From Escherichia coli (GTDB lineage: Bacteria > Pseudomonadota > Gammaproteobacteria > Enterobacterales > Enterobacteriaceae): a stretch of 64,000 bases of DNA. The translations under genes were made by a program, and so were the position numbers. Numbering within the stretch: the stretch's first letter is position 1; the number at the start of each line of letters is the position of its first letter. The notes below the pieces were generated by a model. The model had not been told where the DNA came from, ran no database searches, and worked only from the letters and a program-made list of their open reading frames with translations. The stretch lies in assembly GCF_013122565.1 (NCBI RefSeq), contig NZ_CP053258.1; one strand, written 5' to 3'. Shown one piece after another: positions 1,052-42,435 of the stretch.

Positions 1052-1675
1052 ATGAACAAGAACTTACTAACAAGGGTAATTATCATTTCGGATGATCTAT
1101 ATTACCTTCAGGGATTAAGTGCAAAACTAGGTCACCATTATCGTTTTTTTATTGAGTGTTTTTTTTGTTCTCAAAATGCATGCAATAATGACCTAAGTAC
1201 ACTTAGATTTGACAACCGCTTTACAAAAAACGTACTTCTTGTCGCAGTGGATGACGTAAGTATACTTGCAAAACTGCCAGATTTGGCCAGGTTTTTAATG
1301 ATTGTTTCACTAAGAAAGATGAAAAACAGAAATATCTTCTTTTCACTTTCAGAGCAAACATTCATTAGCCGATATATAAAATTGAATAAACTCATTACTT
1401 TGATTAAAAGTACTGATAAAGACCAGCAAGTCAGGCAGGTGACTCTGACAAGGTATGAGTGGGATATCTATTACTTATTTTTTAAGATAGATAACAAAAG
1501 AATATTGCACACCCTGCTAAAAAAGGATGTCAAGTATATTAGTCACTATAAAATATCAGTTTTTAATAAGTTTGAAATTGCTTGTGATAGTGATGGCTTT
1601 TACATTTTCAAGGCACTTATACAGTTAAGGAGATTTACCCGTTTTAAAAACGTCAGATTGTATCAATTGCATTAA
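1052..1675 (+). CDS. Putative LuxR-family (FimZ/EcpR-like) transcriptional regulator immediately upstream of the fimbrial operon; the receiver-like N-terminus appears degenerate
   Basis: 207-aa ORF. C-terminal segment LTRYEWDIYYLF...KDVKYISHYKISVFNKF resembles a LuxR/FixJ-type HTH. Very AT-rich codon usage. Position directly 5' of the fimbrial major subunit gene. No similarity search was run. Confidence 0.45.
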   Translation: MNKNLLTRVIIISDDLYYLQGLSAKLGHHYRFFIECFFCSQNACNNDLSTLRFDNRFTKNVLLVAVDDVSILAKLPDLARFLMIVSLRKMKNRNIFFSLSEQTFISRYIKLNKLITLIKSTDKDQQVRQVTLTRYEWDIYYLFFKIDNKRILHTLLKKDVKYISHYKISVFNKFEIACDSDGFYIFKALIQLRRFTRFKNVRLYQLH

Positions 1676-1717
1676 TTAACTCGTTCTATATTAACTCTAA
1701 ATTTCAAGGATATTAAT

Positions 1718-2278
1718 ATGTTTTCTACTTTCAAAAAAGCAGCTCTGCTGGCAGCTATTGCATTACCTTTTTCAACTATGGCTGCGCCTACAGTCACTTT
1801 TCAGGGTGAAGTAACCGATCAGACCTGTTCCGTAAATATCAACGGTCAAACCAATTCAGTAGTATTGATGCCGACCGTAGCCATGGCTGACTTCGGTGCA
1901 ACTTTAGCTGATGGTCAGAGCGCAGGCCTGACGCCGTTTACGGTTTCTGTGTCTAACTGCCAGGCTCCAACTGGTACAGATCAGGCAATCAACACCACCT
2001 TCCTGGGCTACGACGTTGACGCTAGCACGGGTGTTATGGGAAACCGTGATACCAGCAGCGATGCGGCGAAAGGCTTTGGCATTCAGTTAATGGATTCCAG
2101 CACTTCTGGTAACCCAATAACTCTGGCTGGCGCGACTAACGTACCGGGTCTGACCCTGAAAGTTGGCGATACCGAAGCCAGCTACGACTTCGGTGCGCGT
2201 TACTTCGTTATCGATAGCGCTGCTGCCACTGCCGGTAAAATTACCGCTGTCGCAGAATACACCCTGAGCTACCTCTAA
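1718..2278 (+). CDS. Fimbrial major subunit (type-1/FimA-like pilin) of a chaperone-usher pilus
   Basis: 186 aa with an N-terminal signal peptide (MFSTFKKAALLAAIALPFSTMAA). FimA-like mature N-terminus TVTFQGEVTDQTCSV and a second Cys forming the conserved pilin pair. C-terminal beta strand ending AVAEYTLSYL. Confidence 0.8.
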   Translation: MFSTFKKAALLAAIALPFSTMAAPTVTFQGEVTDQTCSVNINGQTNSVVLMPTVAMADFGATLADGQSAGLTPFTVSVSNCQAPTGTDQAINTTFLGYDVDASTGVMGNRDTSSDAAKGFGIQLMDSSTSGNPITLAGATNVPGLTLKVGDTEASYDFGARYFVIDSAAATAGKITAVAEYTLSYL

Positions 2279-2342
2279 TTAATCTACTGGCTGGCAGTAA
2301 ATGTCAGCCAGTATTTCTTTGCACAATTAATAGTGATTTTTC

Positions 2343-3065
2343 ATGGACATGGAAAAGATAAGAATGAACATTTTTGCATATTTACTGGTACTTGTATTTT
2401 CCATGAGCATGAGCAGCAGCGCGTTTGCCAGCGTGGTAATGACCGGAACCCGTATTATTTTCCCTGGTGACGCAAAGGAAAAAACCATCCAGTTGCGAAA
2501 TACCAGCGATCAGCCCTATATCATTAATATCCATGTTGAGGATGAACGTGGTTCTGACAAGAATATACCGTTTATGCCAACCCCGCAGACATTTCGCATG
2601 GAAGCTGCCGCAGGTCAGGCGTTACGCCTGCTCTACACTGGTGATAATTTACCGCAGGATCGCGAGTCTGTTTTCTGGTTTAGTTTCAGTCAACTACCTT
2701 ATCTGAATAAGAACGATAAAAGTCAGAACCAGCTCATCCTGGCCCTGACTAATCGAGTCAAAATTTTCTATCGTCCCAGCTCAATTGTCGGTAAATCCAG
2801 TGACGCGCCAAAAAACCTGACTTACCAAGTAAAACAGAACCGCATTGAAGTGACGAATCCCACGGGCTATTACGTCGTGATTCGCGCCGCTGAACTGCTT
2901 AATAACGGTAAAAAAGTCCCCCTCGCGAATTCCGTCATGATTGCTCCTCAAGGCAAAACTGAATGGACACTACGCACTGGCATCAGCGTCGCTCCCGGTG
3001 CGCAGATTCATTTAGTGACCGTCAATGACTATGGCGTAAATGTCACGTCTGAGCATGCCTTATAA
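2343..3065 (+). CDS. Periplasmic fimbrial chaperone (PapD/FimC family)
   Basis: 240-aa ORF containing a signal peptide and PapD-like motifs (RIIFPGDAKE..., LPQDRESVFWFSF, RVKIFYRP). The true start may be an internal Met (MNIFAYLL...). Confidence 0.85.
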   Translation: MDMEKIRMNIFAYLLVLVFSMSMSSSAFASVVMTGTRIIFPGDAKEKTIQLRNTSDQPYIINIHVEDERGSDKNIPFMPTPQTFRMEAAAGQALRLLYTGDNLPQDRESVFWFSFSQLPYLNKNDKSQNQLILALTNRVKIFYRPSSIVGKSSDAPKNLTYQVKQNRIEVTNPTGYYVVIRAAELLNNGKKVPLANSVMIAPQGKTEWTLRTGISVAPGAQIHLVTVNDYGVNVTSEHAL

Positions 3066-3117
3066 GCTCTTTCCCCTTTTTTGAGCGGTATCCTTTTTCA
3101 CGCACGAGTATGTCGAG

Positions 3118-5640
3118 ATGAATAAATCCGTTGTGTCAATTTCTGCGGCAATATTGGTTTTACTCTGCCAGCCGGTTATGGGGAAAGAAATCTCACCCGC
3201 TACACCGTCAGATGAAGATAACTACACCTTTGACCCGCAACTCTTTCGCGGCAGCAGATTTAGTCAGTCGTCATTGGCAAAACTGACAACTCGTGAGTCT
3301 GTTGCACCGGGTAATTATAAAATGGATATCTACACCAATAATAAGTTGTCAGGCAGTTGGAATGTCACGTTCAAAGAAGCCGCTGATGGTCGCGTTCTGC
3401 CCTGCCTGACGCCTGAAGTCGCGGACGCGATAGGCCTCAAAACAGGGGAAGATAAGGGTGAAAAAGATCCGGTCTGTACCTTTGCTCAGGAACTCGCTCC
3501 CGGCATCACCAGCCAGACACAGTTGTCACAACTACGCCTTGACTTGTCGGTGCCTCAGAGTCAAATGATTAGTCGCCCTCGCGGCTATGTCCCCCCCAGC
3601 GAGCTGGATACCGGAGCATCGCTGGCGTTCATGAATTATATTGCCAACTATTACAACGTTGCCTATTCAGGGCAGAATGCTCATAGCCAGCGTTCGCTAT
3701 GGGCATCATTTAATGGTGGCATCAACCTTGGTGCCTGGCAATATCGTCAGTTATCCAACATGACCTGGGATAATGACAAAGGGAATCAGTGGAACAATAT
3801 TCGTAGCTATTTGCAACGCCCGCTGCCCGCCATAAATAGCCAGTTAATGATGGGGCAGCTTATCACCAGCGGAAGATTTTTCTCTGGACTCAGTTATCAC
3901 GGCGTTAGTCTCGCGACCGATGAACGTATGCTGCCGGACTCCATGCGCGGCTATGCGCCGACTATTCGCGGCGTGGCCGCAACAAACGCCAGAGTCTCGG
4001 TAATGCAAAACGGTCATGAAATATATCAGACCACCGTGGCTCCTGGCCCTTTCGAGATAAACGACCTATACCCCACCAGCTACAGCGGCGATCTGGATGT
4101 CACCGTTACGGAAGCTAACGGCGCAGTCAGTCGTTTCAGTGTCCCCTTTTCAGCCGTACCAGAATCGATGCGTCCAGGAACTTCCCGTTATAACGTGGAA
4201 GTAGGTAAAACGCAGGATAGTGGTGATGACTCGATGTTTGGTGACCTTACCTGGCAGCACGGGATGACTAATACGCTGACATTTAACAGTGGTTCGCGTA
4301 TCGCTGATGGCTACCAGGCGCTGATGCTGGGCGGAGTCTATGGCAGTTCGCTGGGGGCATTTGGGGCAAACCTCACTTGGTCCCATGCGCGTGTTCCCGA
4401 AAGCGAAGCGCAGAGTGGTTGGATGTCGCAATTAACCTGGAGTAAAACTTTCCAGCCTACTTCAACCACCGTCTCCCTGGCAGGTTATCGATACTCTACC
4501 AGCGGCTATCGTGATCTGGCTGATGTGCTGGGAGAGCGTCATGCTGCCAGCAATAAACAGTCATGGGACTCCAGCCAGTGGCGTCAACAGTCGCGCTTCG
4601 ATCTTACGTTAAGTCAGAGCCTTGCGAATTACGGCAACCTGTTTGTGTCAGGTTCAACACAGAACTACCGTGGCGGCAAAAGCCGTGATACACAGCTTCA
4701 GTTAGGTTACAGCAATAGCTTTAGCCATGGCATCAGTATGAACCTTTCCGTCGGACGCCAAAGAATGGGCGGCTATAAAGACAATTCTGATGATATGCAG
4801 ACGGTAACATCCCTTTCATTCTCATTCCCACTTGGCGGCAATGGACCTCGTGTACCAAGTCTTAGCAACAGCTGGACCCATTCAACTGACGGTAGCTCGC
4901 AATTACAAAGCTCGCTAACCGGAATGCTTGATGAAGCACAGACCACCAACTACAGCCTGAACGTCATGCGCGATCAACAATATAAGCAGACGACGCTTAG
5001 CGGAAACATGCAAAAACGTTTTTCACAAACTACCGTCGGATTGAACGCATCGAAGGGCCAGGATTACTGGCAGGCTTCAGGTAACGTACAAGGCGCGATG
5101 GCTGTGCATGGTGGCGGCATTACTTTCGGACCTTATCTGGGTGAAACGTTCGCCCTGGTCGAAGCTAAAGGCGCAGAAGGTGCAAAAGTCTATAACTCCA
5201 GTCAGCTGGAAATTAATGACAGTGGCTATGCGCTTGTTCCGGCAGTAACGCCCTATCGATACAACCGTATATCTCTCGATCCACAAGGAATGGATGGCGA
5301 TGCCGAGTTGGTCGACAGTGAAAGACAGGTAGCACCGGTTGCAGGTGCGGCGGTGAAAGTAATTTTCCGTACCCGTCCTGGTAAAGCGTTGCTGATTAAA
5401 TCCCGCATGGCAGATGGTTCGGAACTGCCAATGGGAGCCGATGTGCTGGATGAGAATAATACAGTCGTCGGTATAGCCGGTCAGGGGGGGCAAATTTACC
5501 TCCGCACAGAACAGACAAAAGGCCACTTGTCAGTTCGCTGGGGTGAAGGTGCTAACGATAGCTGCCAATTGCCCTTTGATATCAGCGGGAAGGACAGCAA
5601 TAGCCCTATCATCCGCCTGAATGAAACCTGTCAGTCTTGA
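3118..5640 (+). CDS. Outer-membrane fimbrial usher (FimD/PapC family)
   Basis: 840 aa with a signal peptide, of typical usher size, placed between a chaperone gene and an adhesin gene. Gln/Ser/Asn-rich beta-barrel composition. Confidence 0.9.
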   Translation: MNKSVVSISAAILVLLCQPVMGKEISPATPSDEDNYTFDPQLFRGSRFSQSSLAKLTTRESVAPGNYKMDIYTNNKLSGSWNVTFKEAADGRVLPCLTPEVADAIGLKTGEDKGEKDPVCTFAQELAPGITSQTQLSQLRLDLSVPQSQMISRPRGYVPPSELDTGASLAFMNYIANYYNVAYSGQNAHSQRSLWASFNGGINLGAWQYRQLSNMTWDNDKGNQWNNIRSYLQRPLPAINSQLMMGQLITSGRFFSGLSYHGVSLATDERMLPDSMRGYAPTIRGVAATNARVSVMQNGHEIYQTTVAPGPFEINDLYPTSYSGDLDVTVTEANGAVSRFSVPFSAVPESMRPGTSRYNVEVGKTQDSGDDSMFGDLTWQHGMTNTLTFNSGSRIADGYQALMLGGVYGSSLGAFGANLTWSHARVPESEAQSGWMSQLTWSKTFQPTSTTVSLAGYRYSTSGYRDLADVLGERHAASNKQSWDSSQWRQQSRFDLTLSQSLANYGNLFVSGSTQNYRGGKSRDTQLQLGYSNSFSHGISMNLSVGRQRMGGYKDNSDDMQTVTSLSFSFPLGGNGPRVPSLSNSWTHSTDGSSQLQSSLTGMLDEAQTTNYSLNVMRDQQYKQTTLSGNMQKRFSQTTVGLNASKGQDYWQASGNVQGAMAVHGGGITFGPYLGETFALVEAKGAEGAKVYNSSQLEINDSGYALVPAVTPYRYNRISLDPQGMDGDAELVDSERQVAPVAGAAVKVIFRTRPGKALLIKSRMADGSELPMGADVLDENNTVVGIAGQGGQIYLRTEQTKGHLSVRWGEGANDSCQLPFDISGKDSNSPIIRLNETCQS

Positions 5641-5655
5641 TACAGAGAAAACCCG

Positions 5656-6990
5656 ATGTCTAAATCGACTTTATTACACATTCTGATTAGCTCCATCATA
5701 TTGGTGGCACTAATACAATCATCCGCTTGGGCTAACTGTACAAACACACAGATAGGTCAAACTGAAGATGGTCGGACAGCGCTTATTGAGTTCGGAAAAA
5801 TTAATATGACCGACACCTATTTTGCGCCAGCAGGTTCACTCCTCGCGACAACGGTCGTACCTCCCACTAACTACACATCAGGTGGCGCGACAGGAAGCTC
5901 AGTATTGTGGGAATGTGATGCAACAGATTTGCCAAACATCTATTTTCTGGTCGCTACCAATGGCGACGACCGCGTGGGGGGCTTTTACGATGCAGGCGGG
6001 CCTGATGGTCTGAGTGATGTCTATGCCACCTGGTTCGCTTTTGTCGGTCTCAAGCAGACCATGGCGGGCGTGACGCTTGGTCGTTACTGGAAGAAAGTGC
6101 CCATCACCAGTTATGCCACTCAGGGAACTAAAATCCAGATTCGCTTACAGGATATCCCTCCTCTTCATGCTGAGCTTTATCGCATCAGTACGCTACCTGA
6201 TACATCAGCAACAACAAGTTGGTGCGGTAATAATAATACAGATGGTAGTGGAGTCGGATTCGCAAAACCTTCCGGTACAATCTATAACTGTGTTCAGCCC
6301 AATGCCTATATTCAGCTTTCCGGTACCAGCGGCATTTTATTTGGTCATGATGAGCCCGGCGAAGATAGTTCTGTTCATTGGGATTTCTGGGGTGCTGATA
6401 ATGGTTTTGGTTACGGAATGCGTTCGGCCAATCGACTCTACAACAATGCCACCTGCGTTGCCCGCAGCGCCACGCCGTTAGTATTGCTGCCGACAATTGC
6501 AGAAGCACAACTGAATGCGGGCATGGAAAGTACCGGTAATTTTAATGTCCGCGTCGAGTGTAGTAACTCGGTTCAATCAGGGATTAGCGATACTCAGACA
6601 GCATTAGGAATCCAGGTGTCTGAAGGTGCATATACAGCGGCGCAAAAACTGGGGATTATCAATAGCAACGGCGGCGTCAGCGCCCTGGTCTCTGATAATT
6701 ATGACGCAGCAGAGATGGCAAAGGGCGTTGGGATCTACATTTCTAACAGTGCTCACCCCGATACGGCGATGACGCTGGTTGGTCAACCGGGCATCGCGAA
6801 GTTAACCCCCGGAGGAAATGCAGCGGGGTGGTATCCTGTATTTGAAGGGGCAACATTAGAAGGTGCGACTCACCCCGGATACTCCAGCTATAGTTACTCT
6901 TTTATCGCCCGGTTGAAGAAACTGCCAAATCAGACAGTCAGTGCGGGAAAAGTGCGGGCAACGGCTTATATATTGGTGAAAATGCAATGA
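5656..6990 (+). CDS. Putative fimbrial tip adhesin (two-domain: N-terminal lectin-like domain plus C-terminal pilin domain)
   Basis: 444 aa with a signal peptide (MSKSTLLHILISSIILVALIQSSAWA) and several Cys pairs. Pilin-like C-terminus ...VRATAYILVKMQ. Located after the usher; its stop overlaps the downstream chaperone start (ATGA). Confidence 0.6.
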   Translation: MSKSTLLHILISSIILVALIQSSAWANCTNTQIGQTEDGRTALIEFGKINMTDTYFAPAGSLLATTVVPPTNYTSGGATGSSVLWECDATDLPNIYFLVATNGDDRVGGFYDAGGPDGLSDVYATWFAFVGLKQTMAGVTLGRYWKKVPITSYATQGTKIQIRLQDIPPLHAELYRISTLPDTSATTSWCGNNNTDGSGVGFAKPSGTIYNCVQPNAYIQLSGTSGILFGHDEPGEDSSVHWDFWGADNGFGYGMRSANRLYNNATCVARSATPLVLLPTIAEAQLNAGMESTGNFNVRVECSNSVQSGISDTQTALGIQVSEGAYTAAQKLGIINSNGGVSALVSDNYDAAEMAKGVGIYISNSAHPDTAMTLVGQPGIAKLTPGGNAAGWYPVFEGATLEGATHPGYSSYSYSFIARLKKLPNQTVSAGKVRATAYILVKMQ

Positions 6991-7676
6991 AATCCGTTTT
7001 GCTCCTCTTAACCGTCTTGTTCGTACAGTCAGTGGAAGCCGGCATCATGCCGGCTTCTTCACGGATTATTTATCGCGATGGCGATCGGGAAAAGACACTG
7101 ATGCTGGTCAATACCAATGACTATCCGGTACTGGTGCAAAGTTGGGTAGATAATGGTGAAGGTTCCCCAGAATCTGCTTCTCCCCCCTTTGTGGTGCTGC
7201 CACCGGTTTTCCGCCTGGCTGCGAGACGAACCCAGGGGTTGCGGATTATCTATAATCATGACCCACTTCCCCAGGATCGCGAATCTGCATTCTGGTTAAA
7301 TCTTTATGAAATGCCGCCAGAAACTCCCCATCAAGATCCCACACATTTAACGCTGGCAATGAATACGCAACTTAAAATCTTTTACAGGCCAAAATCTGTA
7401 ACTATGACGCCCCAAGAAGCTATGCGTAAAATAAGTTGGCATCTGGGTAACGACGGCAGCAGTAGCTATATTGAGCTTAATAACCCAACACCACTGAATA
7501 TCTCTTTCACCTCCATCAGCATTGGGGCTACAAAGGTGCAGCAAGAAAGCGATATGATGATAAAACCCTTCAGTCAACGACGGTACTGGTTAGCAAGTAA
7601 TAACGTTAGTGGTGTGGTTGCGGCGACATATCTCGATGATAATGGTGCACAGATAAAACAACAATTAGCGCAATAA
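6987..7676 (+). CDS. Second periplasmic fimbrial chaperone (PapD-like)
   Basis: 229 aa with a signal peptide and the motifs RIIYRDGDREKTLMLVN, LPQDRESAFWLN and LKIFYRPKS. Start codon overlaps the adhesin stop codon, suggesting translational coupling. Confidence 0.8.
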   Translation: MKSVLLLLTVLFVQSVEAGIMPASSRIIYRDGDREKTLMLVNTNDYPVLVQSWVDNGEGSPESASPPFVVLPPVFRLAARRTQGLRIIYNHDPLPQDRESAFWLNLYEMPPETPHQDPTHLTLAMNTQLKIFYRPKSVTMTPQEAMRKISWHLGNDGSSSYIELNNPTPLNISFTSISIGATKVQQESDMMIKPFSQRRYWLASNNVSGVVAATYLDDNGAQIKQQLAQ

Positions 7677-7821
7677 TGCTCTGAGTGGTATGTAAACTCA
7701 TCGCGATGGTTCAACGCTAACGAATAACCACTATACCCACCTGAAGTACCGGAAGTGGAGAAATGACAACATCTCTCCACTCCATTTTCCAGTCAAAACA
7801 CCTCAACGCAGCCAAAAATCG

Positions 7822-8613
7822 TTAACGAATTGAATATCCACCATCAATGACTAATAGTTGTCCATTGACATAATCTGAAGCGGCACTGGCGAGGAACACC
7901 ATTGCGCCCATAAGATCCTGTGCCCTTCCCCAGCGTTGAGCCGGTATACGCCCTTTTATTAACTCTTTTATTTTAGGGTTATTATAAATAATAGCGGTCA
8001 TTTCACTCACATAATATCCTGGGGCGATACCATTAATCTGAATATTATATTCCGCAAAATCATCGGCATACGCTTTGGTCAGCCCCGCTAAAGCATGTTT
8101 AGTCGCCGCATACCCTGGCGACCAACGTCCCCCATGAAATGACAATACGGAACACATATTAATAATTTTCCCTTTTCTTTGCGGGACAAATATATTCAAT
8201 GCGGCCTGGCTCATATCGAATGCAGCATTCAGGTTGAGATTAATCATCGGATCCCAGTCGTTTCGATTGAAATCGATAGGACGATTAAAGTTACACACGC
8301 CCGCGTTATTGACCAGAATATCTAACTGACCGAAACGCTCCAGACACCTATTAATAATGGTGCATGCTGCATCAGGTTTTGTTATGTCTATTGTCATAAA
8401 CTCAACTTCAACGCCTTCATGAGTTAAATGCTTTAAATATCTATTATCAGGCTCTTTGATGTCTACCAACAATAGATTAGCCCCTGCTTTGGCCAGAGCC
8501 GAGCATAAGCCTCTCCCCAGCTCACCCGCGGCCCCAGTTACGATGGCCACCTTGTTATGTAATGAAAAAAAATCCAATGAAAAATCTTCAATAGAAAAGC
8601 TCATATCACACAT
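7822..8613 (-). CDS. Short-chain dehydrogenase/reductase, KduD-like (2-dehydro-3-deoxy-D-gluconate 5-dehydrogenase paralog)
   Basis: 263 aa. Rossmann motif VAIVTGAAGELG, NNAG motif, catalytic Y-x3-K (SPGYAATKHA), and a C-terminus ASDYVNGQLLVIDGGYSIR closely resembling KduD. Start may be the Met three codons downstream. Confidence 0.8.
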   Translation of the reverse strand: MCDMSFSIEDFSLDFFSLHNKVAIVTGAAGELGRGLCSALAKAGANLLLVDIKEPDNRYLKHLTHEGVEVEFMTIDITKPDAACTIINRCLERFGQLDILVNNAGVCNFNRPIDFNRNDWDPMINLNLNAAFDMSQAALNIFVPQRKGKIINMCSVLSFHGGRWSPGYAATKHALAGLTKAYADDFAEYNIQINGIAPGYYVSEMTAIIYNNPKIKELIKGRIPAQRWGRAQDLMGAMVFLASAASDYVNGQLLVIDGGYSIR

Positions 8614-9291
8614 TGCTCCTTATGAGTAAGTAATATTTAAGGGATAATTTAAGTAATTTTTAGATTTCAATAAAAAAATATAAACATTAAAACTCAGCAT
8701 GAATAATAAACATCAAATCTTATATACATTTAAGTAGTGATGTATCACGTAAAAATATAGTCATCATAGATGTTATGCAGTACGCACAAAAAAACAGACT
8801 GGATTTGCTTGCTGATCTATAATCTTTATCTAAATTACTATTGGCGCTTTGGATAATAACATAAGCATATATTACCTCCTAGCAATAATAGACATAACCT
8901 CATATCAAGGTGTCACTGGTAAATAATCGGATAAAGGACAGTACCGGTCGGCACATAGAGCTTCTTCTATTTCACCAGAAGTGCACAGCAGGGAACTACC
9001 AATCACACGGTTAGTGTCATGGGTGGAGGATGCGTCCCGTTCTTTCCCAATAACGGGGATACGCAGTTTTTATCAGTACATGCAGAAAAACCCCTAATTC
9101 ACATCACTGCAGAAAGCATTTAATAGAAATATACATCGTTTAAGAATTTCAATTAAATCAAGATTATTCTTAAAAATCAGATAATTCACATTTGCATTTT
9201 TAGGAAATTATACTATAGTGCAATTAATGTTCTTGCCTTTATTTTGTAAGTAATACTGGATTTGTAATACACAACTAAGGTATAAAATGTA

Positions 9292-10104
9292 ATGATCTAC
9301 ATTATAAATGATGAAGTAAGATTCAACTCATCATCTAATAAGTTAACATCACTCCTTACATCAGAGGAAGTGATACTCACTTATCCTGCGGGAAAATGCT
9401 TAAAATTACTTTTAGATAACGCTTATAGTGTCGTATCGCACAATCAATTCTTTGAAAAAGTCTGGAGCGATAGCAGCGCTGAAGTCGCAACCAATACTTT
9501 ATATCAAAACATTTCGATGATAAGACGCTCCTTTCGTGAAATCAGCTCATCGACGATATTTAATGATATTATCAGAACGGTGCCGCGTAAGGGTTTTAAA
9601 ATCAATGAAGAAATCAACATAACTGTTCTCGACAATAATCATACTGAGAATGAAAGTGTTGAGAGTGAAGAGGATGGTACCCACATTGAAAATATAAATA
9701 AAAATCATGTTGCAAAAGATATTTTCACCACAAAGAATACATTACTTATAGTGTACTTTTTTGCGGCATGGGGGATAGTGTATATATCTTCTTATTTTTT
9801 CGATATGGCTTTTCAAAGCAAAGCTCACACTATAAAAAAAACAGATGCTTTCTCAAATTATGCTCAACATCCTACTCAGGAAGGGTGTAGCTATTTCTAT
9901 GACAATATATATTTTAATTCCGTAGACATGTTATCACCGATTATTGAAAAATTGCAGAAAATGGAAATTAACTGCAAAATACATCCTTACATTTACATTG
10001 CAACAAATGATAGCATGAGCGGGTTTTATGCTTTCACCTGTAGTCAGATGTTAAACTCTGAATCACCAAATAATTGTAATTCTCTCTATTATAAAGCGGA
10101 GTAA
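9292..10104 (+). CDS. Membrane-anchored ToxR/CadC/MarT-like transcriptional regulator (N-terminal OmpR-type winged helix, one TM segment, Cys-containing periplasmic domain); resembles E. coli YqeI
   Basis: 270 aa. Winged-helix signature ...FFEKVWSDSSAEVATNTLYQNISMIRRSF...IIRTVPRKGFKI. Acidic linker followed by a hydrophobic segment NTLLIVYFFAAWGIVYISSYFF. About 100-aa C-terminal domain with four or more Cys. A GG-containing RBS-like motif lies upstream of the ATG. Confidence 0.7.
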   Translation: MIYIINDEVRFNSSSNKLTSLLTSEEVILTYPAGKCLKLLLDNAYSVVSHNQFFEKVWSDSSAEVATNTLYQNISMIRRSFREISSSTIFNDIIRTVPRKGFKINEEINITVLDNNHTENESVESEEDGTHIENINKNHVAKDIFTTKNTLLIVYFFAAWGIVYISSYFFDMAFQSKAHTIKKTDAFSNYAQHPTQEGCSYFYDNIYFNSVDMLSPIIEKLQKMEINCKIHPYIYIATNDSMSGFYAFTCSQMLNSESPNNCNSLYYKAE

Positions 10105-10108
10105 TCAT

Positions 10109-10600
10109 ATGACTCAAAGATATTTTCTATTTGCGGGAATAATTTTATGTGCTTTTATTGCAGCAATTCTTAGCCATATTGCGTTTCATCATGCCAATGA
10201 ACCAGCAGAGCAAAACATATCATGTAATGCCCATGTTATTAATTTCACCGATCATACGAAAATGGATCAATACTTTTCGTTAAATATGATTTCTGAAAAT
10301 AATACAGGGAATATGTATCTCACGGGTGCTTACACGGTAAATGGGAAAAAAATGGGTTTCATCCGCCGATATGTGAGTTTTACATACAAGAAATTCCGTG
10401 ATACCGTTTATTTCACCACAGTTAAAATACAAAAAATACAAAAAGATGATAACATTAGTGATGAAATCCTTGAAAATATCACTTCTGATTTTTTCATAAA
10501 AGTAGACACCTCAATTAATTTTTATGTTACACGTCAAAATGATTACAACTACGTATTCTCTACAGGCAGGACACCACGCTTCATATGTATTTCCCACTAA
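10109..10600 (+). CDS. Small N-terminally anchored periplasmic partner protein (ToxS/FidL/YqeJ-like) of the upstream ToxR-like regulator
   Basis: 163 aa. Starts 4 nt after the upstream stop (coupled). Single N-terminal TM (YFLFAGIILCAFIAAILSHIAF) followed by an Asn/Thr-rich periplasmic domain. Size and arrangement match ToxS/FidL-type partners. Confidence 0.5.
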   Translation: MTQRYFLFAGIILCAFIAAILSHIAFHHANEPAEQNISCNAHVINFTDHTKMDQYFSLNMISENNTGNMYLTGAYTVNGKKMGFIRRYVSFTYKKFRDTVYFTTVKIQKIQKDDNISDEILENITSDFFIKVDTSINFYVTRQNDYNYVFSTGRTPRFICISH

Positions 10601-10700
10601 CAGTAGTGTTGATCATTGCGCTTGTCATCAGATAATAACCTTCTGATGGCTTTGTTTATATTTTAAGGCAATAAAAAACATTCCAATATTGGTTAATTAT

Positions 10701-12215
10701 TTATCTGTTTACATACCACTGATAAAACTCTGTCGCTTTCATTGGTTTTGCATATAAGTACCCCTGAACTAATGTCACGTTATTATGAATAAGATATTCC
10801 GCCTGGTGAGGAGAACTGACACCTTCTGCAATCGTTATCAAATTTAGTCGATTACTCAGCTTAATAATAATATCTAAAACTGGCGTTTCGTCTTCCGCTG
10901 TAGTGAGTGTGTCTATAAAGCTTTTATCTATTTTAAGATAATCAACAGACAACTTTTGTAGAAGGCCAAGGGAACAATATCCCGTGCCAAAATCATCAAC
11001 TGCAAATTCACAGCCATGGATCCTTAATTCATTTATTTTCTGTAATGCAAGATCAGTGTCTTCAACCAGATTGCGTTCGGTAATCTCAAGGACAATATTA
11101 AATTTATCAGATATTGCATTTTTAATATGTAAAACATCAGCAACAAAGTCAGGATGTGCAAGATGTTCCGCGGCAATATTTATCCCAAGGTGAAACGGTT
11201 TTTTCACTTTCCAGCTTTGTACATCCTGAATAATCAGTTCAAAGAGATGCTTAGTTAACGGTATTATTAAATTTTCCTCTTCTGCCGCGCGGATAAAAAC
11301 TACCGGAGATATATTTTTACCATCTTCGCGTTGCCAGCGCATTAACGCTTCAACCCCCAGACACGCTTTGGTTGTCGTGTCGCACACTGGTTGATAATGC
11401 ACAGAAAATTCTCCGGATGACATTCCTTTTTTAATTTCTTCTGCCAGCGACATTTTCCGTGACATCCAGTGCTGCCATAAGAAATAGAGAATAAAAGAAA
11501 GAATAATAGATAACGGCAAAATATAAAGCACATTGCTAATGATATAGGGATATAACGAAATCATCGGCGTAGTAACTGTAAGACGAGCCTGACTGTTCGC
11601 AGAATTAAAATCTCTTTTTAACATATATAACCTGTCATTATTATTTACACCACTAATAATTGCAGGCCCTTCAGTAAAGCGAAGAGAAAATGAATCATCA
11701 TTCTCATCATCAAGAACATCCATTAGATCATAGATATATCGTGACTCGACAATACTAAAAGCTGTCATATTATTCCCTAATGGCATAAGGAACACTATGG
11801 CTGTTTTACCTGGTACAAAACTTGTTCCGCTAATTGATACTATGCGTGATTCTTTATTTTTATTGTGAAAGCTCGTACCGTAAACATCGTTAACATTCAT
11901 TTTTTTGAAACCGCTAACTGAAGAACATATTTGGAAATTATTTTCTATAAGACCCGTTGTTCGAACATAGGGAGTCAATGCTCCGTTAGCAATCAACTGC
12001 TCCAGGATATCTTTGCAGGGTTTCATCACCAGAATAGAAGTAAGCTTTGTCGTATGCTGGACAATTTGCGTAACATTATCAAGCTGTTTTAACAGAATAC
12101 CGGCGGTAATTGTCGTATCTCTATTCATTTGAAATATTGACATAGCAAACGATAGTAACACCCCCAGAATGCCTGGTATTATAATGAGTACAAACATTTT
12201 TTTGTTGAATACCAT
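10701..12215 (-). CDS. pdeT: CSS-motif EAL-domain c-di-GMP phosphodiesterase (PdeT/VmpA-like), absent from K-12
   Basis: ORF 10701..12311. Probable start is the Met at 12215 (MVFNKKMFVLIII...), immediately before TM1. Periplasmic domain with CSS motif (QICSSVSG) and a second Cys, then TM2. EAL domain with intact EAL (GVEALMRW), LEITE and DDFGTGY motifs. The gene name is assigned from memory of the EHEC vmpA/pdeT locus next to dgcT. Confidence 0.75.
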   Translation of the reverse strand: MVFNKKMFVLIIIPGILGVLLSFAMSIFQMNRDTTITAGILLKQLDNVTQIVQHTTKLTSILVMKPCKDILEQLIANGALTPYVRTTGLIENNFQICSSVSGFKKMNVNDVYGTSFHNKNKESRIVSISGTSFVPGKTAIVFLMPLGNNMTAFSIVESRYIYDLMDVLDDENDDSFSLRFTEGPAIISGVNNNDRLYMLKRDFNSANSQARLTVTTPMISLYPYIISNVLYILPLSIILSFILYFLWQHWMSRKMSLAEEIKKGMSSGEFSVHYQPVCDTTTKACLGVEALMRWQREDGKNISPVVFIRAAEEENLIIPLTKHLFELIIQDVQSWKVKKPFHLGINIAAEHLAHPDFVADVLHIKNAISDKFNIVLEITERNLVEDTDLALQKINELRIHGCEFAVDDFGTGYCSLGLLQKLSVDYLKIDKSFIDTLTTAEDETPVLDIIIKLSNRLNLITIAEGVSSPHQAEYLIHNNVTLVQGYLYAKPMKATEFYQWYVNR

Positions 12216-12408
12216 ACATGTTTCCCCACGCATCAGGGTGATGCAACCTAAGAAATTATAGTACAATTGCCAGTAAAAGCGGGTGATAGCAGATTGATCA
12301 ATGATAAGCATTTAAGATCATATAGTACTATGATATTTCTGAAAATTGTTACGCAAGTCTGCGAATAGCTATTTAGCGCTTACCAAAATCACCCGCTAAA
12401 ATGCCGCT

Positions 12409-13767
12409 TCATGGTGACTCACAAAAATTCACCACATCCCTCACAACCACCTTATTACGCCCGGTCTCTTTCGCCTCGTATAGTGCGTTATCAGCCAGTC
12501 GATAGATCTCATTCGGGTTTAACGCATTTTCCTGAGTCACAACAGCGCCAATACTAATCGTCACTTTTTGTGGTATGGCGTATTCAGGATTATCGCCAGT
12601 TAAACGCTCAACATTTTCCCGAATCCTTTCCGCTAAAGCTTTCGCACGTTCAGTATCGATGTCCGTCAGCAAGACGCCAAACTCTTCGCCGCCGACGCGC
12701 GCAAAAAGGTCATCTGGCCGTATGCTTTTCCCAATGATATTCACCACTGTTTTTATCACCTGATCGCCAACCGGATGCCCCCAGGTATCGTTGACTTTTT
12801 TGAAGTGGTCGATATCCATAATCATGACGCAATAAGGCGTTTTTTTGGCTGATGCTGATTGAACTGTCAGTTCATTAAAAAAATAATTTCTGTTAAATAT
12901 ATTGGTTAAGGAATCGCGATGTGCAATGTCCTTTGTTACTCGTAGCGCACTGAATATATGGCACATAAATATTACCATAACGGTTAACTTACTGACTACT
13001 TCAATAGTGCGACTAATATACCAAGTGGACACGCTATACCTGCTCATAAATAACAGAGAGATATTGTACAGTACGGCACAAAAAGCAATCACCGTCACTC
13101 CATTCCAGATATCATAGCGTAAACCATTAAAGTATAGATTAACCGAAAGCAAGGTTAACCACATGAAAATCATTATGGTAACATATGATGTTTTCCAAAC
13201 CACCTGATCATTTTCATTGGTTAACTCGGCAATGTGTAAATTGTAGCTCTCATAATGACTAGAAAGTATGTGAGCAACTATCGGCCCCCCAACAACAAAA
13301 AACAAACTTATGCACAAAGTCATTTTTTTGGAAAATAAATTGCGCTGTTTTGTGTTTTCACTAACTTTACTCACCAATGCCAGAAATATTAATATGCACA
13401 AACTCATCTGACGAAACAAATAATAAATTGCAATGTCATTTTGAACAACACTGCTTGTCAAACGCCCCTCAATAATTTGCTGAATGATAATGACGGTTTT
13501 AACAAAGTAAATCAAACAACTCAGAAAAGCCAAACTAAGTATACAGTTTGAAAATTGCCTACGGTCATAAATGAAATACAACTGCATAAAAATAAATGCA
13601 ACAGTATCGATAAAAAATAAAGCAATCATTACCATCAGATAGGTTGATCGTGGAACAACTTCCTCAACGCCTGGCTGATTAAACCAACTATTCACCAAAA
13701 CCAAAGCAAGCCCAAACAATAAGCTCACTAATACAGTACTACTAATTCTCAAATAGTCTTTTTCCAT
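12409..13767 (-). CDS. dgcT: Diguanylate cyclase DgcT (YcdT): multi-TM sensor domain plus GGDEF domain
   Basis: Near-identical to K-12 YcdT from MEKDYLRISS... (the ORF extends 24 codons further upstream to 13839). GGEEF active site and RPDD I-site are present. Divergent from pgaA, as in K-12. Confidence 0.95.
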   Translation of the reverse strand: MEKDYLRISSTVLVSLLFGLALVLVNSWFNQPGVEEVVPRSTYLMVMIALFFIDTVAFIFMQLYFIYDRRQFSNCILSLAFLSCLIYFVKTVIIIQQIIEGRLTSSVVQNDIAIYYLFRQMSLCILIFLALVSKVSENTKQRNLFSKKMTLCISLFFVVGGPIVAHILSSHYESYNLHIAELTNENDQVVWKTSYVTIMIFMWLTLLSVNLYFNGLRYDIWNGVTVIAFCAVLYNISLLFMSRYSVSTWYISRTIEVVSKLTVMVIFMCHIFSALRVTKDIAHRDSLTNIFNRNYFFNELTVQSASAKKTPYCVMIMDIDHFKKVNDTWGHPVGDQVIKTVVNIIGKSIRPDDLFARVGGEEFGVLLTDIDTERAKALAERIRENVERLTGDNPEYAIPQKVTISIGAVVTQENALNPNEIYRLADNALYEAKETGRNKVVVRDVVNFCESP

Positions 13768-14119
13768 AAAGCTACACCAATCTGTAGGTTGTAGATCCCT
13801 TTCTATTATTAATAGATATAAGAACTGTACTGTTGTCAATATGAAATTCCGACCACAAACAATACCGATGATGATAGTTGCAGCCGCAATTATTATTACC
13901 TTAGTGCTTTATACATTCTTTGCGACAAGACAGGCTTGCAAATACTTATAAATGGTTATAAGGAAATCCTTATGAAACATTAATTCATAGATAGATTAGG
14001 AATAACAATTGAATCCGTGAGTACAGTAACGCTGCATTTCATCAGGACTTTCGAAAAATCCGATATCATGCATCGGAATTTACTGATTTAATTATTTTAA
14101 TCCTAATTTATTTTGAAAA

Positions 14120-41175: not shown

Positions 41176-42435
41176 TTAAATTGCATAACGATTTAAATAG
41201 TCGAGTTGCGCATTCATTTCCTTATTTTTTAACTTATAAGCCTGAGAAAAAAGTTCAGGAGGGAGGTAAACGTCATAATGATTGCCAGTGTTTATTAAAT
41301 AACCATACTCAAGATCTTCATCTGTTGAAAAGGATTCATTCCCTAAGGAGATTGATGCCACATTACTGTAAACAATAAATAATGAGCAAATGCTATCTGA
41401 AAGAGCAGTGAGGAAATTTTTCACCTCATTAACCCTCTGCTCTGGATCGGTGTCTAAAACAAGGCGTACCTTGTTATCATTAAATATAAATTCGGGTAAA
41501 TGCAGTATGCATTTTTTGTCATTCAAGCAACTATCAATAAATCCTTTTTTAAAATACAAAAAACTCCATGATAAAAAACTACCCTCCCCCTGGATTTTAT
41601 TATCAGATTGCAACTCAACGCCGAATAATGTCTTTACATCTTCCCTGAGATCATTGAATGCCGCATCAACAAGAGCCTCGATCGTTTGTTTATCAACCAT
41701 TTCAATGAATTCGTCGTAAACTTCCTTTTGCGTTTTATAACTGCCCAGTGCCCATGAATAATCGTGTTGTTTTAAAACCAGTATAGCTCTTAACAGACAA
41801 TATCCATCGCCATCTACAGGAGCATATTTTAATCCTAATGCCTGGTTAGTTTCACTCTGAATAAAAGATATACCAGATAAATCAATACCAGTATCTAAAT
41901 CAGATATTCCCGGCGTATTTATCCGTTCTGACTGGATACTCATATTTTCATCATCATCTAAACAATACTCAGAAAAAACATCATCACACGCATTAATGTT
42001 TTCAATATATTCCATAAAGCCATACCAATAATAACCTTTAAAATCTGTGATAGACTCTGAACCTCTGCCCGGCAAGGACACTCTAACAATATCAACATCT
42101 CGATCATGTTGTATAGTATATGTAATACCTCCTGAAACCCCTGAATAAATTTGTTTATCATTAGTACGCAATGTTTTCATAAATAATGATAAATCATTAT
42201 CATTCTGTATTTCCTCAAATTCTTTTTCTAGTGAATCGCATTCCAGGCATGGAATGTAGTCTTCAGCTTGTTGACGTCTGATTTCTTTATACAACCGTAT
42301 AAAACACACCAGTGTGTTTTCAAAAAGCGTGATTGAATATGTTTGATTTTTTTCGTACTCATTTTTTATATCGTTCCAGGCTTGCTTCAAATAATTATTT
42401 GCAGTGCAACTAATTCCATGTATATTACTACTCAT
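41176..42435 (-). CDS. yccE: YccE, uncharacterised protein
   Basis: 419 aa, low-GC, acidic; order and size match K-12 yccE. Confidence 0.8.
   Translation of the reverse strand: MSSNIHGISCTANNYLKQAWNDIKNEYEKNQTYSITLFENTLVCFIRLYKEIRRQQAEDYIPCLECDSLEKEFEEIQNDNDLSLFMKTLRTNDKQIYSGVSGGITYTIQHDRDVDIVRVSLPGRGSESITDFKGYYWYGFMEYIENINACDDVFSEYCLDDDENMSIQSERINTPGISDLDTGIDLSGISFIQSETNQALGLKYAPVDGDGYCLLRAILVLKQHDYSWALGSYKTQKEVYDEFIEMVDKQTIEALVDAAFNDLREDVKTLFGVELQSDNKIQGEGSFLSWSFLYFKKGFIDSCLNDKKCILHLPEFIFNDNKVRLVLDTDPEQRVNEVKNFLTALSDSICSLFIVYSNVASISLGNESFSTDEDLEYGYLINTGNHYDVYLPPELFSQAYKLKNKEMNAQLDYLNRYAI

Follow-up and report, generated by a model that had tools for sequence, protein, structure and literature searches.

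A gene for a classical short-chain dehydrogenase/reductase (SDR) in a 64,000-nucleotide stretch of Escherichia coli DNA (contig NZ_CP053258.1; here called the window) appears from sequence comparison to found a small and divergent offshoot of the YgcW family that has spread horizontally. By descent, its product should probably not be read as KduD or as a KduD isozyme, and its association with pili and with the regulator GrvA is not conserved. These points are new; the gene itself (Z1533/ECs1275) is already annotated, as 'putative oxidoreductase' or 'SDR family oxidoreductase', and lies on a much-studied island. If the placement is right, the function of KduD in pectin and hexuronate breakdown should no longer be transferred to Z1533, which would instead belong to an offshoot of the equally uncharacterised YgcW family, on an island where a virulence regulator is already known. 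In practice the gain is modest, amounting to a tidier annotation and one defined candidate to include in enzyme screens. We propose, with moderate confidence, that the protein is a cytoplasmic, probably NAD(H)-dependent SDR with its own promoter, derived from the YgcW family and acting on a substrate that is probably less polar and unlikely to be KDG or DKII. The SDR is an ordinary accessory enzyme, and would be notable only if it acted on a ligand of GrvA/FidL or on a product of the island's lipid cluster.

The gene and its surroundings on O-island 47

The original prediction placed a gene at 7,822–8,613 without naming a strand, and the open reading frame there is real and intact, although the coding sequence is likelier to begin slightly further in. 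The gene and its flanking elements are as follows.

7,822–8,613, minus strand: SDR open reading frame in its longest form (263 codons, start ATG at 8,613; from the ORF list and translation)
7,822–8,604, minus strand: likely form of the SDR coding sequence (Z1533/ECs1275 orthologue; 260 amino acids, 783 nt; from PGAP and orthologues)
8,616–8,621, minus strand: Shine–Dalgarno sequence AAGGAG (11 nt to the ATG at 8,604, 2 nt to the ATG at 8,613)
8,605–9,291, no strand: AT-rich divergent spacer between the SDR gene and grvA (687 bp; putative site of the SDR promoter)
7,751–7,783, no strand: strong hairpin in the 145-bp convergent gap, candidate shared terminator

Because of the Shine–Dalgarno spacing and the constant length of 260 amino acids among orthologues, the true start is most likely the ATG at 8,604. 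PGAP annotates the 783-nt form in the three E. coli genomes inspected, and the gene is uninterrupted both there and in the 24 full-length matches listed. The opposite (plus) strand of 7,822–8,613 is dense with stop codons. The open reading frame matched the Pfam families adh_short (PF00106; 171 bits, E = 2.7e-50) and adh_short_C2 (PF13561; 178 bits, E = 2.9e-52) against cut-offs of about 27 bits, and E values in the range of 1e-50 to 1e-52 place it far beyond chance.

We considered whether the gene, carried on an AT-rich island gained by horizontal transfer, could be a silent passenger that serves no present function in E. coli. Its GC content is 42% (GC3 0.40) in a host genome of 52–55% GC, which is typical of xenogeneically silenced DNA; the orthologues are AT-rich in every host (GC3 0.31–0.50), as expected of horizontally moving DNA. 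The island also shows decay: strain SCU-316 has lost the fimbrial operon together with the SDR gene through an IS1 deletion, and strain Res13 carries a frameshift in grvA but an intact SDR gene. No phenotype has been reported. Against this reading, all six Z1533-type orthologues, from four genera, are intact and exactly 783 nt long. Among E. coli, dN/dS is about 0.07–0.10 (14–16 synonymous versus 4–5 non-synonymous differences), and intergenus comparisons gave a low amino-acid divergence (dN 0.10–0.26) set against saturated synonymous sites. Moreover, a phosphotyrosine peptide of Z1533 (pY201) was detected in an EHEC proteome (PMC3681748), indicating that the protein is made. The position fits the identification: Tyr201 is present only under the 263-residue numbering, inside the APGYY motif. 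A silent passenger is thus very unlikely, and the intact orthologues, purifying selection and proteomic detection (PMC3681748) likewise rule out a pseudogene, which the original prediction had named as an outcome that would refute it.

The gene belongs to O-island 47 (S-loop 71) of EHEC O157:H7, beside dgcT–pgaABCD. The island lies between dgcT (ycdT) and ycdU and carries GrvA, FidL, the loc6 fimbriae, a TPS pair and a FAS-like cluster. The neighbours of the SDR gene in the window are listed below.

1,052–7,676, plus strand: loc6 (Stb-like) chaperone–usher fimbrial operon (NCBIfam and Pfam)
9,292–10,104, plus strand: grvA (z1531/ECs1274), ToxR-family membrane regulator (Trans_reg_C domain; exact protein in E. 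coli clusters)
10,109–10,600, plus strand: fidL-like lipocalin, co-component of GrvA (ECs1273; named FidL in the sources; PMC9214523, Table 1)
10,701–12,311, minus strand: CSS-motif EAL c-di-GMP phosphodiesterase (Pfam EAL and CSS-motif)

The fimbrial operon comprises a 207-residue open reading frame, a major subunit, a chaperone, an usher, a 444-residue fimbrial protein and a second chaperone. The EAL phosphodiesterase at 10,701–12,311, which we take to be VmpA/z1528, scored 310 bits against NCBIfam PRK10551, under the cut-off. In PapRG-04-4, the order of the island on the minus strand is filamentous haemagglutinin, ShlB, acpS, a FabG-like SDR, FabZ, ACP and a GcvT-like protein, followed by KS-KS, KS, ABC/FtsX, LolA-like, malonyltransferase and ycdU genes; the opposite side holds the fimbrial operon, the Z1533-type SDR, the wHTH regulator, FidL and the EAL protein. 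The right-hand half of the island, from the TPS gene to pgaB, is also found in O157:H7 strain 4276. O-island 47 has been described previously (PMC8565820), as have the gene list ECs1272–1287, which includes ECs1275 as 'putative oxidoreductase' (PMC1635569, Table 1) and the EAL protein ECs1272 as 'Rtn-like' (PMC1635569), and the fimbriae, named loc6 (ECs1276–1281; PMC2323221; bioRxiv 10.1101/2020.04.13.038984). The neighbouring regulator had been called ToxR-like, which is correct as far as its wHTH, ToxR-like character goes; it is already characterised as GrvA, paired with FidL (PMC10877973, PMC8565820, PMC9214523). GrvA activates the LEE and represses acid resistance (PMC10877973), and together with the lipocalin-like FidL it forms a co-component sensor of the VtrA/VtrC type (PMC9214523). 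The fidL orthologue of Pseudocitrobacter carries a YqeJ_C domain.

As originally described, the SDR gene stands alone between a pilus operon and this regulator; we found neither kduI nor a transporter within about 10 kb. The last chaperone gene of the fimbrial operon, which ends at 7,676, converges on it across a gap of 145 bp, and grvA, which starts at 9,292, diverges from it across a gap of 687 bp. We expect no shared transcript: the gene would be transcribed alone from the AT-rich spacer that it has in common with grvA, and its transcript probably ends at the hairpin of the convergent gap. The region 7,677–7,830 folds with −51.4 kcal/mol (z = −3.5), a stability reached by none of 200 shuffled sequences. 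A consensus promoter scan of 7,600–9,400 gave five sites versus 7.9 expected from shuffles, nothing above chance, and an Rfam scan of 7,000–10,800 returned only a chance-level miRNA match, on the hairpin. Between E. coli and Pseudocitrobacter, only the grvA-proximal part of the spacer is conserved and the SDR-proximal half is not. Co-regulation with adhesion, as had been suggested, finds no support in this arrangement, in which a probably monocistronic gene faces the fimbrial operon and is separated from grvA by 687 bp. We also searched the E. coli spacer for a remnant of ycdU, given the ycdU–SDR junction in Serratia, and obtained no significant tblastn or blastn matches.

Placement of the protein relative to YgcW and KduD

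'KduD-like' was a fair first label. The best-scoring named NCBIfam model is KduD PRK06935 (NF005390), and among solved structures Pectobacterium KduD (4Z9Y) comes closest in both sequence (E = 2e-58) and fold (TM 0.93–0.96, rmsd 1.3 Å); no YgcW-type structure is among the structure matches listed. An AF2 model of the SDR (pLDDT 88.8) has alternating beta and alpha elements, and every top Foldseek match is an SDR. Several homologues have, in addition, been labelled '2-deoxy-D-gluconate 3-dehydrogenase' by their depositors. These observations would fit a second KduD of identical function, through which a hexuronate or sugar acid from the host or from plants would enter the KDG pathway with the help of the chromosomal kduI, kdgK and eda. 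Every curated KduD cut-off was missed, however: the SDR scored 295.3 bits against 369 for PRK06935, 250.3 against 338.85 for TIGR01832 and 232 against 430 for PRK08993 (NF006528). As a control, E. coli KduD cleared two of the three models (PRK08993 (NF006528), 555 > 430; TIGR01832, 457 > 339). YgcW cleared none of them, and the NCBI KduD cut-off was reached by 0 of the 10 members of the clade and YgcW family that were tested.

Sequence identity points in the same direction. By BLASTP the SDR is 55% identical to K-12 YgcW over 257 residues, against 43% to KduD, 38% to IdnO and 30% to FabG; identity to the island's own FabG-like reductase is 27%. We placed the protein in a neighbour-joining tree of 123 sequences, a distance-based tree sampled from the top matches of this query and containing one KduD and one IdnO only. 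The E. coli SDR and five relatives (62–82% identical) form a monophyletic clade in 100 of 100 bootstraps. Three of the five relatives could be given a genus: one belongs to Pseudocitrobacter, one to an organism resembling Serratia fonticola and one to the Tenebrionibacter/Tenebrionicola group. This clade is sister to 113 YgcW-family sequences rather than nested among them, and KduD and IdnO fall outside both (100/100). The clade sits on a long branch, at a distance of 0.60–0.70 to YgcW-family members, which differ from one another by just 0.15–0.30 even between Proteobacteria and Firmicutes; the distances to IdnO and FabG are 1.26 and 1.58. The long branch may in part come from AT-driven amino-acid drift (GC3 0.31–0.50) rather than from a new function. 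In a scan of species representatives with the clade alignment, matches to the generic SDR motif DIL[VI]NNAG predominated, the best match listed being 53% identical, and the range of four genera is a lower bound. The phylogeny thus places the protein, as proposed, in the neighbourhood of KduD and the gluconate 5-dehydrogenases, but not in the line of KduD, since its sister group is the YgcW family. With the tree, the identities and the curated models all pointing away from KduD, and with two pocket arginines replaced (see below), the gene is no KduD paralogue in the strict sense. An isofunctional KduD is accordingly unlikely, all the more so as kduD is already present in 5,418 of 5,426 genomes.

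The closest relative by identity is YgcW of E. coli K-12 (b2774), an uncharacterised protein annotated 'putative deoxygluconate dehydrogenase'. The two share the N-terminal FS-DFFSL extension and the YgcW-family motifs DWDPMI, GG(R/Q)WSP-Y, APGYY and GGY--R, and of the positions at which the YgcW family does not vary, the clade retains 87 and is fixed differently at only five (P109, F139, G164, D182 and I216). Unlike YgcW, the SDR is on a long branch and has none of the YgcW partner genes beside it, ends beta2 with Val-Asp rather than Pro-Ser, and differs in the pocket at H157, R160, I206 and I212. With KduD (2-dehydro-3-deoxy-D-gluconate 5-dehydrogenase, EC 1.1.1.127; E. coli b2842; Pectobacterium 4Z9Y), which uses NAD to interconvert KDG and 2,5-diketo-3-deoxygluconate, it shares the classical SDR fold, the catalytic tetrad, the best named HMM and 41–43% identity; it nevertheless falls under the curated thresholds, lacks a kduI partner, lies outside the KduD branch and is changed at the KduD pocket positions R98, R205, N195, Q150 and I153. 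With the IdnO/Gno gluconate 5-dehydrogenases and the FabG 3-oxoacyl-ACP reductases it has the SDR superfamily and mechanism in common, but it is clearly more distant from them and has no idn or fab genes adjacent.

Catalytic motifs, cofactor and substrate pocket

The protein belongs to the classical SDR superfamily, having its fold and its TGxxxGxG, NNAG and YxxxK motifs. The clade shows no variation in the segments TGAAGELG (23–30) and NNAG (99–102) or at the residues S152, Y165 and K169; these three residues align with S145, Y158 and K162 of KduD, and the N-S-Y-K tetrad is intact. By the usual SDR mechanism, Tyr165 would act as the acid/base, Lys169 would lower its pKa and bind the ribose, Ser152 would polarise the substrate carbonyl and the Asn would complete the proton relay, allowing reversible hydride transfer between nicotinamide and a secondary alcohol or ketone of a small metabolite. 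An acidic residue at the end of beta2 denotes a preference for NAD(H), an established rule among SDR enzymes. In the clade this position is an invariant Val47-Asp48, in place of the Pro-Ser of most YgcW proteins, and the invariant Asp48 suggests that the enzyme uses NAD(H).

To compare substrate pockets, we transferred positions by sequence alignment from an AlphaFold and docking study of KduD, which used non-physiological substrates and contained no KDG complex (PMC10827548). That study assigned I96, R98, M146, L147, Q150, I153, V155, N195, L199, R205 and I209 to the KduD pocket (PMC10827548). Of these 11 variable positions, only L147 and I209 are kept in the SDR. Both arginines are replaced by hydrophobic residues in the clade, R98 by F/I106 (F in the SDR) and R205 by I/L212 (I in the SDR); other changes are N195 to M202, Q150 to H157 and I153 to an invariant R160. 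The comparison hints that the SDR pocket is more hydrophobic than that of KduD and less suited to a di-oxygenated sugar acid. In KduD, R98 and R205 may contribute to binding of the sugar acid. Because the pocket is less polar and has no counterpart of these arginines, the substrate is probably not 2-keto-3-deoxygluconate. By analogy with KduD, we infer a less acidic, more hydrophobic hydroxy or keto compound, probably neither KDG nor its diketo partner, and this inference extends to the substrate class only: the view that the substrate itself cannot be read from the sequence stands. KduD does accept less polar compounds, reducing hydrocortisone and doxorubicin with NADH (PMC10827548; for hydrocortisone citing Tubeleviciute 2014), and the N195M variant acts on hydrocortisone with a kcat/Km of 81 per min per mM, against 2.7 for KduD itself, a gain of about 30-fold (PMC10827548). 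The SDR has Met202 at the equivalent position, and by this residue-level analogy the steroid-like substrate of the original suggestion may be conceivable.

Genomic context, prevalence and possible partners

We compared the neighbours of the SDR gene across the clade. In Pseudocitrobacter, a block of TPS, fimbriae, SDR, grvA-like and yqeJ-like genes is kept in a different chromosomal setting. In Serratia, the SDR gene is the last co-directional gene, 130 bp past the ycdU-like gene of a TPS/FAS-like cluster, with no fimbriae or regulator adjoining it. In Tenebrionibacter/Tenebrionicola, it is a solitary gene with a gor-like gene on one side and a nucleoside hydrolase/MFS pair on the other. Because the neighbours change between genera, the SDR is not a constant companion of fimbriae or GrvA, nor does it belong to the core of the lipid cluster. 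The lack of any fimbrial or regulatory neighbour in Serratia and Tenebrionibacter/Tenebrionicola, together with an SDR-proximal spacer that is not conserved in Pseudocitrobacter, also tells against the suggested co-regulation with adhesion. No kduI, kdgK, kdgT or uronate transporter gene lies within 10 kb on either side in E. coli, Pseudocitrobacter, Serratia or Tenebrionibacter, which weighs further against an isofunctional KduD; true kduD adjoins kduI in K-12. The usual YgcW-family neighbourhood comprises a YgcU-type FAD oxidase, ETF alpha/beta, a GlpP-like antiterminator, an FGGY kinase and a transporter, and was seen in K-12, Serratia fonticola, Photobacterium and Fodinisporobacter (a Firmicute). 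These partner genes are absent around Z1533-type genes in all four genus contexts, and would have been lost in the SDR line.

Within E. coli, the SDR gene occurs in 401 of 5,426 complete genomes, always as a single copy, so that carriers make up about 7% of the species, chiefly the O157:H7, O55:H7 and O145 lineages. By contrast, ygcW is near-core (5,077 of the 5,426) and kduD–kduI proper nearly universal (5,418), in agreement with the original view of the gene as an extra paralogue; with the genes counted separately, the SDR would be a third, accessory paralogue beside KduD and YgcW. In the same genomes, grvA–fidL was found in 410, the usher gene in 400 and KS-KS in 382, again in single copy each. 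With near-equal prevalence, the genes of O-island 47 behave as one unit inside E. coli. Two other impressions were discarded. Conservation relative to O157 is not specific to the gene, as identity of about 99.5% belongs to a mosaic block that also spans the adhesin, the chaperone and the spacer; and apparent carriage on plasmids came from two records, one of 212 kb (EDL933) and one of 4.9 Mb, both taken as mislabelled chromosome.

The Serratia arrangement raises the question of whether the SDR could serve as a keto-reductase for tailoring in the TPS-linked fatty-acid- or polyketide-like pathway of the island (acpS, FabG-like, FabZ, ACP, KS-KS, KS, ABC/LolA-like, malonyltransferase and YcdU), acting on its lipid product or an intermediate. 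Besides the position at the end of the Serratia cluster, 130 bp after the ycdU-like gene, the E. coli gene lies on the same island and strand as the cluster, its prevalence is nearly identical to that of KS-KS (401 versus 382 genomes) and its pocket is relatively hydrophobic. The cluster nevertheless has a FabG-like reductase of its own, only 27% identical to the SDR, and in E. coli the fimbrial operon and the TPS genes stand between the two. The cluster also does without the SDR elsewhere: in Enterobacter mori it stops at the ycdU-like gene, with no Z1533-type SDR, and Tenebrionicola has a complete cluster with none adjoining. Furthermore, the ketosynthase of the cluster is spread over more than ten genera, against four for the SDR clade, and in Tenebrionibacter and Tenebrionicola the SDR gene sits among housekeeping genes. 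Such a role in lipid tailoring is therefore improbable.

The last reading that we weighed is that the SDR makes, breaks down or modifies a small hydrophobic ligand of FidL, a ketone or alcohol originating from the host or the island (a bile acid, a steroid or a lipid product of O-island 47), coupling it to control of the LEE and acid resistance by GrvA/FidL, and possibly to loc6. If true, an enzyme that edits a metabolite would here be connected to a virulence sensor and would set the signal for LEE-dependent adherence. Escherichia and Pseudocitrobacter both keep the divergent SDR–grvA–fidL arrangement, with 82% protein identity and in different chromosomal settings. The prototype VtrA/VtrC binds bile salts, and GrvA/FidL has been modelled as a like complex (PMC9214523); hydrocortisone is a substrate of E. 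coli KduD (PMC10827548), and Met202 of the SDR matches the activity-raising N195M. Yet no such cassette lies near the orthologues of Serratia or Tenebrionibacter/Tenebrionicola, and the paralogous yqeI/yqeJ cassette of K-12 has no adjacent SDR gene. We likewise know of no SDR gene adjacent to the marT/fidL cassette. The SDR-proximal promoter region is not conserved, and the Res13 strain has lost the grvA frame while keeping an intact SDR gene. The two proteins would also act in different compartments, as FidL senses in the periplasm and the SDR has no signal peptide-like N-terminus. Finally, the GrvA studies found do not mention the SDR (the GrvA RNA-seq study lies outside this scope). We regard this coupling as highly improbable, and continue to favour an ordinary cytoplasmic enzyme of the YgcW offshoot. 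A full-text search for Z1533, ECs1275 and ygcW returned the proteome table, the gene list and incidental mentions only.

A recombination mosaic inside O-island 47

Identity to O157:H7 strain 4276 changes abruptly within the island, and the two adjoining segments form a sharp recombination mosaic:
5656-9291: adhesin, chaperone and short-chain dehydrogenase (SDR) genes and spacer, around 99.0–99.8% identity
9292-12311: grvA (ToxR-family regulator), 94.6% identity; fidL (lipocalin partner), 96.5%; EAL gene, 96.4%
The fast-diverging part of this mosaic is the sensor cassette, on the grvA and fidL side.

Decay of the island was observed in some E. coli strains. In SCU-316 (comparison locus L096), an IS1-bounded deletion has taken out the FHA N-terminus as well as the fimbrial operon and SDR, and there are frameshifts in grvA and fidL and a stop in the ACP gene. 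In Res13-Sevr-PER07-33 (L095), the SDR is intact and grvA is frameshifted.

Two further features lie in or beside the fimbrial operon:
1052-1675 (+): 207-aa open reading frame (ORF) directly upstream of the major subunit gene
7751-7783: 33-nt perfect-stem hairpin (z = -3.5) in the gap that separates the convergent SDR and fimbrial chaperone genes
The 207-aa ORF had no Pfam or NCBIfam match, and Pseudocitrobacter keeps a counterpart of the same length at the same position. The hairpin also matched an Rfam miRNA family, at chance level.

Genes next to the SDR and its relatives

In K-12 (NC_000913.3 2982497-2989786), yqeI-yqeJ, a ToxR-like/lipocalin cassette paralogous to grvA-fidL, lies only around 5 kb away from the true kduD-kduI. 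A KduD/YgcW-like SDR likewise adjoins grvA-fidL here. The pairing of this SDR type with this cassette type recurs, but it is probably a coincidence.

Nucleoside genes adjoin the SDR orthologue in two unrelated contexts (L007 12266-16779; L093 19195-20708; L091 11090-13680; L103 7089-9682). In Serratia, the neighbours encode a NupC-like transporter together with a 5'-nucleotidase and pyrimidine-nucleoside phosphorylase; in Tenebrionibacter/Tenebrionicola, they encode an inosine-uridine nucleoside hydrolase and an MFS transporter.

The fatty-acid-synthesis-like cluster and other ORFs

A collinear cluster of around 17 genes is common to E. coli, Serratia, Enterobacter mori and Tenebrionicola (L010 12012-32341; L093/L094 1-16799; L101; L102). 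Its order runs from FHA/ShlB two-partner secretion through acpS, FabG-like, FabZ-like, ACP and GcvT-like aminomethyltransferase genes to fused KS-KS, KS, ABC/FtsX, LolA-like, malonyltransferase and YcdU genes. The ketosynthase is present in many more genera than the four with the collinear cluster.

Two other ORFs were noted:
41176-42435 (-): 419-aa ORF in a local low-GC patch (36–39% GC)
12409-13839 (-): longest dgcT ORF, TTG start, 476 aa
The former, for which Pfam gave no match, has an agp-like histidine-phosphatase gene on one side and a gene for a CbpA-like DnaJ protein on the other, and its position makes it probably yccE. For dgcT, the PGAP annotation gives 1,359 nt and 452 aa, and the mechanically called ORF runs beyond the true gene.
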